This document shows positions 1 through 20,930 of a stretch of 32,000 nucleotides of DNA, piece after piece. Below the pieces are notes generated by a model that worked only from the letters and a program-made list of their open reading frames with translations, was not told where the DNA came from and did not search any database. Position 1 is the first letter of the stretch. Every line of letters starts with the position of its first letter. The translations under genes were made by a program, and so were the position numbers. Origin of the DNA: Akkermansia muciniphila ATCC BAA-835 (lineage in GTDB: Bacteria > Verrucomicrobiota > Verrucomicrobiia > Verrucomicrobiales > Akkermansiaceae); assembly GCF_000020225.1 (NCBI RefSeq), contig NC_010655.1:690001-722000 (forward strand), written 5' to 3'.

Positions 1-1797
1 TCCGCCGGCAAGCCCGAAACTGAGCTCCCCAGAGGAAACTGTCAGCGCATTCGCAAATCCGGTGGAAGAACTGAGCGTGAGCTTGCCCGCTCCGCTCTTG
101 GTAAAAGCACTACGGCCATCCAGCACCGTTGCGTTGGCAATAACGGCATCCGTCCCTTCTCCAGCGGAAATTTCGTCAAACCCGGAAATGGAGGCGTTCG
201 TGAACATGTCCGCGCGCGTCACTCCGTTCAAATTCAACACGCTTCTGGTAACCGTATCCCCCCGGCCCTGGCCGGAAAGAGTTGTCGTTCCGGTAAAAAT
301 GGCGTCATTGCCCGTAATGGTCACGTTGGCCAAAGCCGTAGTCAGGGCAGTGCCATTGACCTTCTGGCCGCCCGCATAAATGGAAACATTATTGAACGTC
401 CCTCCGCTGATGGAAAGATTGGCTTCCCCAATCGTCAACGCGGAACTGGTATTGTTGCGTTCCACATAAGTGCCCAGGGATATTTGAGCTCCATCAAATG
501 TGCCGCCCGTAATTGTTATATTGGTGGAACCGATATTCCCGGTAAGGGCGGCGGTAGCGGTTCCGTTAATATAGGAGCCGCCCCAGATTTGTCCCGTATA
601 TGTCCCGGACTTGAAAGTCAAATTGGTGGAACCTGTAATATTCAACGTGCTCTCCCCCGTTTCCACCCAGCTTCCCCCCGCAATCATGGCCGCCACGGTG
701 CCGCTGCCCAAGTCCAGCGTCATATTGGTATCCGCCAGGTTCCAGGCAGACGTGCTTAAACGGGCGCCCGCAAAGATTTTCTTGGTCCCGTCTCCGGAAA
801 AAACAGCTCCCGTGATCGTTGTCGCCACGCCCTGCGAAAATAAACTCTGAGCAAAAGTCCCCCCGGTGATTTCCACGGAAGCGGACGAATGCTCCGCAAT
901 ATTTGCGGCAGAACCTGAGGATGTCGCATCGGACAGGCCATATACATTCGCGTTGTACTGGCCTCCCGTAATGCTCAACCTGGCCGTACAGGCATTCGTT
1001 CCATCTCCCAACTGCACTTGGCCTCTTCCCAGAAGGGCGACGGAGCCGTTAAAAGTTCCCCCGTCCAGATTCAGGGAGACATTGCCGACGATGGTCGATT
1101 TCTGCCCCGCCCCGCGTGTCGTTCCAGCCGTTACCAGCTGGGCGAAGGTCCCGCCGTCAATGGTGAATGTCACATCCCCCGTGTGGCGGAAGGATTCCTG
1201 CCCCAGCCCTATGCACCAGCTGGAACTGGGGTTGGAGACAGAAATTCCGGCCCATTCCCCGCCATGAATGTTGACGGTATATGTCCCCGTCGTCTGGTAG
1301 GCATCATTTTTGTTTCCATCCCCCACCAGGGAAAAACCATTAATCGTGCCGGCATTCCGGTCTACATTGAGGGTAATGTCGGCGGACACAATCCGGTCCT
1401 GGTTGCTCCACCCCATCAACTGGGCATTTGTATTCAACAGGGATGCACCTTCCCCGATATTGATTACAAAGGAATTGGTTCCTCCGATGGTGACGCCGGA
1501 GGCAGTACCCGCAATATTCCATAATTGCAGTTTTGTATAGGTTCCTCCCTCCAGATTGAGAACCCGGTTATAGCCGTCTTCATAGGTCCCGCTTGCCGTA
1601 ATATCCGTTAGATAAATATCGCCGGGAGAATCCGCCTGAGTCACGGGATCCCCTTCCGGAGGCGTAATCGTGTATTGGCCGTCGGCAAAGGAAATCGTCG
1701 TATCTCCATTGCCCGTCAACGTATAATCAGACCATGACGGAGAAATGAAACAGGCCAGAAGAGCGGATAAAAGAACAAGGGGCAAGCGCGGTCGCAT
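1..1797 (-). CDS. Secreted beta-helix surface protein with autotransporter-associated (PATR-type) beta-strand repeats. The N-terminal 599 codons are present; the C-terminus lies beyond the window start.
   Basis: The minus strand is open from the ATG at 1797-1795 to position 1 with no stop. It is missing from the ORF track because it has no in-window stop. Hand translation starts MRPRLPLVLLSALLACFISPSWSD (signal peptide). Recurring rungs follow: IDGGTFAQLV, LDGGTFNGSV, ITGGQYNANV, ITGGTFAQSL, ITGGTFDGAQ, ISGGTFNNVS. Near position 1 it reads TKSGAGKLTLSSSTGFANALTVSSGELSF, a typical PATR signature. Confidence 0.8.
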   Translation of the reverse strand, partial: MRPRLPLVLLSALLACFISPSWSDYTLTGNGDTTISFADGQYTITPPEGDPVTQADSPGDIYLTDITASGTYEDGYNRVLNLEGGTYTKLQLWNIAGTASGVTIGGTNSFVINIGEGASLLNTNAQLMGWSNQDRIVSADITLNVDRNAGTINGFSLVGDGNKNDAYQTTGTYTVNIHGGEWAGISVSNPSSSWCIGLGQESFRHTGDVTFTIDGGTFAQLVTAGTTRGAGQKSTIVGNVSLNLDGGTFNGSVALLGRGQVQLGDGTNACTARLSITGGQYNANVYGLSDATSSGSAANIAEHSSASVEITGGTFAQSLFSQGVATTITGAVFSGDGTKKIFAGARLSTSAWNLADTNMTLDLGSGTVAAMIAGGSWVETGESTLNITGSTNLTFKSGTYTGQIWGGSYINGTATAALTGNIGSTNITITGGTFDGAQISLGTYVERNNTSSALTIGEANLSISGGTFNNVSIYAGGQKVNGTALTTALANVTITGNDAIFTGTTTLSGQGRGDTVTRSVLNLNGVTRADMFTNASISGFDEISAGEGTDAVIANATVLDGRSAFTKSGAGKLTLSSSTGFANALTVSSGELSFGLAGG

Positions 1798-1861
1798 AAC
1801 ACTATAACGTATTGATAATGAATAAAATTATTTACAAGACTATATGCTTGTTAATAATTAG

Positions 1862-2033
1862 CGGATTAGAAATCCGGAGTCAATGACAATTTTTGAGGCC
1901 AAGCCCTTTAGGTGCATGGAACGGCCTGAAAGGGGAAAGAGAGAAAATGGGGGTGTCCGTTTCAAGAATCGGCATTATTAATATTTTAATCATTATCTGG
2001 ATTCATTTATATCATTTACGGATTTCTAATCCG
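1862..2033. repeat. Perfect 15-bp inverted repeats bracketing a 142-bp AT-rich segment; candidate invertible promoter element or paired operator.
   Basis: CGGATTAGAAATCCG (1862-1876) and CGGATTTCTAATCCG (2019-2033) are exact reverse complements. Each is internally palindromic (CGGATT-N3-AATCCG). AGTCAA at 1878-1883 reads TTGACT on the minus strand, pointing at the CDS that starts at 1797. The repeats are certain; the function is inferred. Confidence 0.85.
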
Positions 2034-2172
2034 TCCGGTTATTTAACCTGTTTCTCCCAGCAAGAGAAACCCGCATGCAGGAAAAAATGATTTCTTGTCT
2101 TGCATTCCCATGGGAGTGCCTGTATAAGCCTCCACGTCCCCGCCGCAAGGCAGGGACGGCATCCAAGGTCAT

Positions 2173-19672: not shown

Positions 19673-19698
19673 TGGCCGCTTCTGTTCAGGGGCGGCCA
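19673..19698. terminator. Hairpin between the convergent porin and recombinase genes.
   Basis: TGGCCGC (19673-19679) pairs with GCGGCCA (19692-19698) around a 12-nt loop that contains the recombinase stop codon. There is no clear U tract. Confidence 0.3.
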
Positions 19699-20753
19699 TT
19701 GTTAATGGTGTGACGCCCCGCATGGCAGTTCCCCCAAAAAACGGCGGCCGTCATTTCCGTAATGCCTTCCATATTCAAATACCTGGTCCTCAGCAAATCG
19801 GAAGAAGAATGCCCCATTTCCATCTGCAATACATGCAAATTCTTGAAATGCCTGGCAAAATAACTGGCAAACGTATGCCTTAACATATCCGCAGGCCACT
19901 TCTTTTCCTTCCCGTCCCACCCGGCCAACCGTCTCAGCTCCCTCCACTTCGCCGGCCAGTTGCGCGGGCATACGCTTCCCGACACAAATCCCATAGCAAC
20001 CGCTCTTTCCAGCAGATTTCCCAAAACCGGCCGGATCGTCACGATGCGGGCTCCTCCCGTCTTGCTGTGGCGCGCCCTCAGGGAAACCATTCCCTCCCTT
20101 AAATTAATCTGTGCCCAATCCAGCCTTCTCACTTCTTCCGGGCGGATGCCGGCATACAGCATCAGCCCAACCGCAGCCAGGCACGCCCCTCCGTCATACT
20201 CTTCCGCCGCAGCCAGCAACCGGCGCATTTCTTCCAGGGACAGCACGGGAATGGAATGCTCCTTCAGCCTCGGCAGATCCACATACGCCACCGGGTTTTC
20301 CGTGCACCAGCCGCGTTTCACAGCCGTTCCGAAAATACCGCTGAGCACCAACCGGGCCTTATGCCTCTGCCTGAGGGTATCAAATGATTTTTCCAGGCAG
20401 GCGCGGCATTCCCGAGGCGTGATAAAGCGCACGGGCCGCCGGGCCATTTCCGGACAAAACCTCAACAACCGCCGGCTGATATAACGGAAATCATCCCTGG
20501 TTCTTTTCCTGCGATCTTGCCGGGCCTCCATGGCCTCATCCACGGCTTTCCTGAACGCCACGGTTTTTCCTCTGGCAACCAGGGCCTCCTCTCCCAGCCG
20601 GATGCATTCCCTTGCCCTCTTCCATCGGTTGCCGCGCCCCTTGCTGGCCTGCAGCAATTCATGCGCCAGCTGGGCGGCTTCCACCACATCCAGCCCTGTC
20701 TTTTTCAAAATGGCCAGCGCCGCATGATCCGTTGCTAAAATTTCCTCTTTCAT
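19686..20753 (-). CDS. Tyrosine site-specific recombinase (phage-integrase family).
   Basis: Catalytic-domain landmarks: AGIRPEEVRRL (Arg I), HSKTGGARIV (Lys), LRHTFAS (His-x-x-Arg), GHSSSDLLRTRYL (His/Tyr). A SAM-like core-binding region lies upstream. I prefer the ATG at 20753 (MKEEILATD, 355 aa). The track start at 20834 would run through the inverted repeat at 20770-20786. Confidence 0.85.
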   Translation of the reverse strand: MKEEILATDHAALAILKKTGLDVVEAAQLAHELLQASKGRGNRWKRARECIRLGEEALVARGKTVAFRKAVDEAMEARQDRRKRTRDDFRYISRRLLRFCPEMARRPVRFITPRECRACLEKSFDTLRQRHKARLVLSGIFGTAVKRGWCTENPVAYVDLPRLKEHSIPVLSLEEMRRLLAAAEEYDGGACLAAVGLMLYAGIRPEEVRRLDWAQINLREGMVSLRARHSKTGGARIVTIRPVLGNLLERAVAMGFVSGSVCPRNWPAKWRELRRLAGWDGKEKKWPADMLRHTFASYFARHFKNLHVLQMEMGHSSSDLLRTRYLNMEGITEMTAAVFWGNCHAGRHTINNGRP

Positions 20754-20769
20754 TTCATCTATTTTGCAA

Positions 20770-20930
20770 CGGTTTCGGAATCCGTAGTCAAGCAAAAATA
20801 GTCGTTTATTAATCAAAATGTTCGGCAATTCCATGGATGCCGTTTCACCGCCCCGTCATATCAGCAATTCCCTTCCAGACAGTTTGATGACAAAGAGGAC
20901 ACAGGAATTCCTATACGGATTCCGAATCCG
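20770..20930. repeat. 17-bp inverted repeats (16/17 match) bracketing a 127-bp segment in the recombinase/operon divergent intergenic region; candidate invertible promoter switch.
   Basis: IRL is CGGTTTCGGAATCCGTA (20770-20786). IRR is TACGGATTCCGAATCCG (20914-20930), whose reverse complement is CGGATTCGGAATCCGTA. It is the same CGGNTT-N3-AATCCG family as 1862/2019. AGTCAA at 20786-20791 reads TTGACT on the minus strand. The repeats are certain; the function is inferred. Confidence 0.85.

Follow-up and report, generated by a model that had tools for sequence, protein, structure and literature searches.

A catalogued inverton beside an autotransporter gene of Akkermansia muciniphila, with a putative split promoter and a candidate tyrosine invertase

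The locus and its inverted repeats

The left end of the window (the whole 32-kb stretch of Akkermansia muciniphila ATCC BAA-835 DNA analysed here) is occupied by the 5' part of a secreted PATR/autotransporter gene on the minus strand (1..1797), which encodes a signal peptide and a PATR repeat. The full-length product has 2302 aa in complete genomes and carries the Autotransporter domain PF03797. The ATG of this gene (1797) lies 64 nt from the end of a short repeat, the first of a pair, and on the far side of the pair come tRNA-Asp (2173-2250) and then a threonine dehydratase gene. The tRNA-Asp is the sole match in an Rfam scan, and a phage database search with a query from the locus gave a match confined to the tRNA part.

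The two repeats are the left recombination arm IR-L (1862..1876), which reads CGGATT-AGA-AATCCG (CGGATTAGAAATCCG), and the right recombination arm IR-R (2019..2033), which reads CGGATT-TCT-AATCCG (CGGATTTCTAATCCG). The arms are 15 nt each, 100% reverse-complementary and 142 nt apart, and they enclose an invertible segment of 142 bp (1877..2018); neither the arms nor the segment is assigned to a strand. Taken singly, each arm is a 6-3-6 palindrome, and whether the pair is inverted or direct is set solely by the central triplet (AGA versus TCT). GC content is 0.29-0.43 across the inverton region versus 0.5-0.67 in its flanks, and the inner segment is 100% identical in CP071807.1 and in one further A. 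muciniphila strain.

The motif CGGNTT-N3-AATCCG gives seven strand-matches in the window, which correspond to four sites (1862, 2019, 20770 and 20916). Chance would supply 0.03 matches, and none of 100 dinucleotide-preserving shuffles of the window reached seven. The 22-nt blocks at 1862 and 20770 agree at 18 of 22 positions. A preliminary description of this DNA had reported perfect arms around 142 AT-rich bp, a motif limited to four sites in 32 kb, the 18/22 match between these blocks and a large secreted surface-protein gene 64 nt from the left repeat; all of these hold, the first in coordinates, complementarity and base composition alike, the second against shuffled sequence, and the last with the signal peptide, PATR repeat and PF03797 domain of the autotransporter.

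Within the invertible segment starts a small open reading frame of 47 codons (1948-2090, plus strand), which has an SD-like GGGGAAAGAGAG leader and reads across IR-R. It was rejected as a gene and treated as spurious because its ATG reads ACG in three metagenome contigs (L001-L003), and it is probably no real gene.

A second inverton (20770..20930, no strand assigned), with arms at 20770-20786 and 20914-20930, sits directly upstream of a minus-strand gene for a 355-aa tyrosine recombinase (19686..20753; PF00589, E=3.8e-18), the candidate invertase. This inverton also has a TTGACT -35 hexamer (20786-20791, minus strand), oriented in the window toward the recombinase gene. Among solved structures, XerA and XerD are the closest to the recombinase, and against XerA (5hxy) its segments GIRPEE, LRHTF, GH and RYL fall on the corresponding catalytic blocks (residues Arg, Arg-His, His and Tyr). 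An NCBIfam search with the recombinase returned sub-threshold Xer matches only. The genes across 20770-20930 differ by strain, being either a gene for a 211-aa protein together with one for a MORN protein, or a gene for a TRL-domain protein that in some cases is accompanied by a Chlam_PMP autotransporter.

Inversion in published reads and related genomes

The switch at 1862-2033 is already known to its coordinates, and its motif, inverton family and locus are all published. A 2026 mBio paper (PMC13343947), in its account of the Akkermansia inverted-repeat motif CGGATT..AATCCG, credits the motif to Jiang et al. 2019, and its experiments show capsule production being turned ON and OFF by a cps1 inverton that carries the motif. 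The same motif was recovered independently in a 2025 Microbiome paper (PMC11892184) as inverton group 138, which has 32 members in ATCC BAA-835 and comes with an associated promoter-like motif. In its preprint version, the supplementary tables list the window element as A-mu-ATCC-BAA-835__0:689906-689921-690063-690078 of group 138, identical in sequence and with IR CGGATTAGAAATCCG. The novelty that the preliminary description implied for this switch is not borne out, since element, motif and family are already in the published catalogue, and the discovery value is small because the locus has been catalogued. Compared with the other group-138 invertons, including cps1, the element shares the arm motif, has a size within their range of 129-269 bp, is likewise intergenic beside a surface-protein gene and has the promoter motif inside; nothing about it differs in kind. 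The orientation of cps1 is tied to capsule production, whereas PMC13343947 and PMC11892184 contain no phenotype or transcript link for 1862-2033.

Forward in the published counts is the reference orientation, which is also that of the window. For the 689906-690078 element, paired-end reads from an isolate culture divide into 930 forward and 273 reverse (273/1203, ~23% reverse), and spanning reads from culture into 488 forward and 155 reverse. Pooled mouse stool gave 10652 forward and 363 reverse reads (3.3% reverse, p=1.6e-114 versus culture). By mouse generation, SC1-2 contributed 3130 forward and 0 reverse reads, and SC3-5 contributed 7522 forward and 363 reverse. The orientation-aware read mapping of 1877-2018 suggested in the preliminary description had therefore already been published with a positive outcome, both orientations being present in culture and in mice.

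Assembled genomes of A. muciniphila present a single orientation. All 12 assemblies covering 1862-2033 match the window: three metagenome contigs, which were the contigs matched in a metagenome scan with the left flank plus IR-L that could detect either orientation, and nine genomes retrieved through threonine dehydratase. No flipped copy was found among the three contigs of the scan or among the 12 assemblies together. A locus from another Akkermansia species (L069) is syntenic with the window, having the autotransporter gene, the inverton, tRNA-Asp and threonine dehydratase, and its inner segment aligns in the flipped orientation only (score 123 versus 25 unflipped; shuffles 31 +/- 8, maximum 58). 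The flip at 1862-2033 is known from the published reads and from cross-species comparison only, and these two sources uphold the earlier reading of the element as an invertible, motif-sharing switch.

The arm centres also carry a signature of recombination. Five strains (L128-L132) have changed both centres of this inverton jointly, from AGA/TCT to TGA/TCA, with complementarity kept. The centres are reverse-complementary within the pair at 23 of 24 Akkermansiaceae loci found by a scan of a genome collection and in 17/17 of the BAA-835 members assessed from the published tables, and the triplet varies between loci. Such covariation is expected of the strand-exchange (overlap) region of a tyrosine recombinase, whereas a transcription-factor operator has no need of it. 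The further idea that each locus has one unique triplet, barring recombination between loci, was rejected because triplets recur: within ATCC BAA-835 the centres AGA/TCT, TAG/CTA and AAC/GTT are each seen twice, and one MAG has TTG/CAA centres at five paralogous loci.

Several related loci deserve mention in their own right. The BAA-835 entry 2374711-2375010 of Table S5, which lies outside the window, has the same arms as the target, with TCT/AGA centres, and recombination between the two loci is conceivable. Another locus with the same AGA/TCT centres (L110) was rejected as an orthologue of 1862-2033, there being no blastn hits. In the Akkermansiaceae MAG U.3_4, five or more paralogous invertons have almost the same inner sequence and TTG/CAA centres (L097, L080, L085, L121). 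Two of them, at 1059-1253 and 2389-2583 of L097, are 1.3 kb apart on a short contig with a coverage of 71 versus 22-23 elsewhere in the MAG. Two family-type invertons of Akkermansia glycaniphila (L008; 5857-6044 and 6328-6515) are ~300 bp apart.

Inversion is directly visible at the recombinase-linked locus. Among eight assemblies with identical flanks, which are public contigs encoding an identical recombinase protein (L133-L140), the inverton has the window orientation in two (L134, L136) and is flipped in six (L133, L135, L137-L140). The arm nearer the recombinase gene has a single mismatch in its outer half, and this mismatch remains with the flank in both orientations, indicating that strand exchange occurs inward of the mismatch position. 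This inverton, 20770-20930, was sought in the published hCom2 inverton tables and was not found there.

Promoter geometry and the candidate invertase

The -35-like hexamer TTGACT of the target (1878..1883, minus strand) lies 1 nt inside IR-L and points outward through the arm to the autotransporter gene. Candidate -10 elements on the fixed flank (1854..1860, minus strand) are AATTAT, at 18-nt spacing, and TAATTA, at 17-nt spacing, and a promoter scan recovers TTGACT-18-AATTAT spanning IR-L on the autotransporter strand with 9/12 matches. The hexamer, which the preliminary description had noticed reading toward the minus-strand gene, proves to be a conserved feature of the family. TTGAC(N) occurs 1 nt (rarely 2) inside exactly one arm, pointing outward, in 21/24 Akkermansiaceae invertons, often preceded by an A/T-rich run. 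Similarly, 13/17 published BAA-835 invertons have a -35 hexamer inside exactly one arm, always at a distance of 1 nt, compared with a background of 2.9%. One nucleotide, a 15-nt arm and one further nucleotide add up to a promoter spacer of 17 nt, and many family flanks carry TAnnnT exactly where that spacer ends (TATGCT, TAGGCT, TATACT). Across the family, the flank -10 candidates are heterogeneous and often weak. Several reference assemblies (for example L085, L097 and L121) have the -35 beside a flank lacking a TAnnnT hexamer and such a hexamer on the opposite flank, and their sequences are read as putative OFF states.

At the target, the flank opposite to IR-L begins tCCGGTT, and a promoter scan of 1877-2018 found no other promoter-like site facing the autotransporter gene. 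Promoter geometry thus suggests that the window orientation is ON for the autotransporter and the flipped orientation OFF or low; the -10 element and the transcription start are likewise predictions from sequence. The -10 candidate of the target is weak. Between IR-L and the ATG, entirely within the fixed flank, there is also a second sigma-70-like site (TTAACA-16-AATAAT, 1854-1827, minus strand; 10/12 matches), which could provide basal expression that is independent of orientation. Because this second site is complete and does not move, the switch may modulate expression of the autotransporter rather than gate it.

Several lines of evidence link the recombinase family to this type of site. 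Recombinase homologues at 41% (L122), 45% (L023), 53% (P0084), 56% (P0014) and 64% (P0012) identity each adjoin a pair of the same motif, in a family with 1301 homologues at E<=1e-10. Given this conserved adjacency of recombinase and inverton in six independent loci, the invertase is most naturally sought in this protein family. The recombinases at the loci examined next to invertons are all of the PF00589 tyrosine type, and no serine-type recombinase was found beside family members there. From these associations we infer that the 19686-20753 recombinase, 18.7 kb away, is most likely the enzyme that acts at 1862-2033. The 32 group-138 sites with one motif in BAA-835 are consistent with a single trans-acting invertase, and one recombinase serving many switches, as the preliminary description proposed, is plausible but unproven. 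Neither PMC13343947 nor PMC11892184 names an invertase for invertons of the group-138 type, and the proximity analysis of invertase linkage in PMC11892184 names none for group 138.

Proposed mechanism and its alternatives

It is very probable, in our judgement, that the inverton at 1862-2033 controls the divergent 2302-aa autotransporter gene by means of a split promoter, with a tyrosine recombinase acting in trans. The recombinase would bind the two 15-bp arms and exchange strands in the central part of the arm, at the locus-specific triplet between TT and AA, and this exchange would flip the 142-bp segment. With the segment oriented as in the window, TTGACT would read through IR-L, the arm would serve as a spacer of 17-18 bp, and AATTAT/TAATTA on the fixed flank would act as the -10. 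The resulting promoter, ~50 nt upstream of the autotransporter ATG, would constitute the ON state. After inversion, the -35 would face CCGGTT on the tRNA-Asp side and the autotransporter gene would lose its promoter, giving an OFF or low state. The enzyme would be the recombinase encoded at 19686-20753; its gene adjoins a family-type inverton of its own, and 1862-2033 would be a target in trans.

The more specific proposal, that the arm is the promoter spacer, that inversion assembles or dismantles the promoter instead of reversing an intact one, and that the dedicated invertase is the inverton-adjacent tyrosine recombinase, has about an even chance of being correct, and the split-promoter geometry and the invertase candidate may have been partly described already in Jiang 2019. 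If the split promoter is real, binding of the recombinase to the arm would cover the core of the promoter. If the adjacent tyrosine recombinase is the dedicated invertase, its own inverton may also affect its expression.

Other explanations share parts of this evidence. One would dispense with inversion altogether and treat the palindromes as operators at which a dimeric transcription factor forms a DNA loop; 6-3-6 palindromes are of a type bound by dimeric regulators, and the spacings between arm centres, 157 bp (~15 helical turns) and 146 bp, are near whole turns. We give this next to no credence, and the orientation data rule it out: published reads carry both orientations, the L069 orthologue is flipped, the recombinase-linked locus is flipped in 6/8 assemblies, and the two centres of a pair change in step as reverse complements, for which an operator has no use. 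Alternatively, the segment may invert without splitting a promoter, TTGAC(N) being an asymmetric accessory site for the recombinase and expression responding through read-through, interference or another promoter. This is improbable, although the heterogeneous and often weak flank -10 candidates, the complete fixed promoter-like site between IR-L and the ATG, and the published promoter-orientation test, in which the group-138 motif did not reach the p<0.001 cut-off (PMC11892184), all fit it. Against it, the hexamer fits the sigma-70 -35 consensus and occurs at one arm only, outward and 1 nt from the arm; the arm plus 2 nt makes a canonical 17-bp spacer, with TAnnnT at that point in many flanks; and 1877-2018 offers no other promoter-like site facing the gene.

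Rather more weight, though still well short of the preferred reading, goes to the possibility that inversion is real and a different recombinase elsewhere in the genome flips 1862-2033, the neighbouring enzyme serving only its own adjacent inverton. The candidate gene is 18.7 kb from the target, group 138 was linked to no invertase group in the published proximity analysis (PMC11892184), and with 1301 homologues at E<=1e-10 there could be paralogues within one genome. However, the two invertons of the window are alike in arm motif, size and -35 geometry, and all of the recombinase homologues examined adjoin a pair of the same motif, which ties the protein family to the type of site.

The arm motif has to be read with its context. 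Outside Akkermansia, bare motif pairs in a genome-wide pair scan are often tRNA anticodon arms or multi-copy REP-like hairpins, so the bare CGGATT-N3-AATCCG motif is unusable as an inverton detector there. The motif is the anticodon arm of tRNA-Cys(GCA), tRNA-Ser and tRNA-Arg (L005, L013, L021, L027, L044 and others), and tRNA arrays consequently match the paired pattern. The inverton arm itself is shaped like an anticodon stem-loop, with a stem, TT-NNN-AA and the second half of the stem; that this shape reflects descent from tRNA-targeting integrases is speculation. Bacteroidota, Chloroflexota, Planctomycetota and one cyanobacterium have CGGATT(TGC/GCA/TGT/ACA)AATCCG hairpins in numerous copies at each locus (L012, L032, L042, L058, L062, L009, L082 and others), some spaced regularly at 35-90 bp. 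These look like REP-like or tandem repeats unrelated to invertons.

Well-studied phase-variation systems offer partial parallels. The fimS switch of Escherichia coli is a 314-bp segment with the whole promoter inside and 9-bp inverted repeats, and it is the single target of the tyrosine recombinases FimB and FimE, whose genes lie close by. The element at 1862-2033 resembles it as a short intergenic promoter segment that would be flipped by a tyrosine recombinase to turn a surface structure ON or OFF. It differs in that the Akkermansia -35 is apparently parted from its -10 by the arm, and in the dozens of sites with one motif. RecV of Clostridioides difficile is one tyrosine recombinase that flips several dispersed switches (cwpV, flgB and others) at surface and motility genes. 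Dispersed short switches near surface genes and a tyrosine-type recombinase, here a candidate, are common to both systems, whereas the inverted-repeat sequences are presumably unrelated and some RecV switches work at a post-initiation step, such as formation of a terminator. Mpi of Bacteroides fragilis is a serine recombinase. The polysaccharide promoter invertons of B. fragilis have a shared inverted-repeat motif, affect surface molecules and are presumed to be served by Mpi as one trans-acting master invertase (PMC11892184). The Akkermansia family is similar in its many promoter invertons, common inverted-repeat motif and association with surface molecules. Unlike Mpi, the Akkermansia candidate is a tyrosine recombinase (PF00589), and Bacteroides invertons hold a complete promoter inside.

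Beyond the catalogue, the present analysis adds two things that neither PMC13343947 nor PMC11892184 mentions: a candidate for the invertase, in conserved synteny, and a putative split-promoter geometry that can be tested. Among the genes beside other invertons of the motif family are those for PEP-CTERM proteins, very large autotransporter-like proteins, a GT1 glycosyltransferase and acyltransferases, and such surface or secreted neighbours fit the surface variation described in the literature. In the gut, A. muciniphila is associated with health, and it is being developed as a probiotic. Its invertons make populations heterogeneous in surface proteins and capsule, and the contrast between ~23% reverse in culture and ~3% in mice is a hint that the forward, putatively ON, state of this switch is favoured in the gut.
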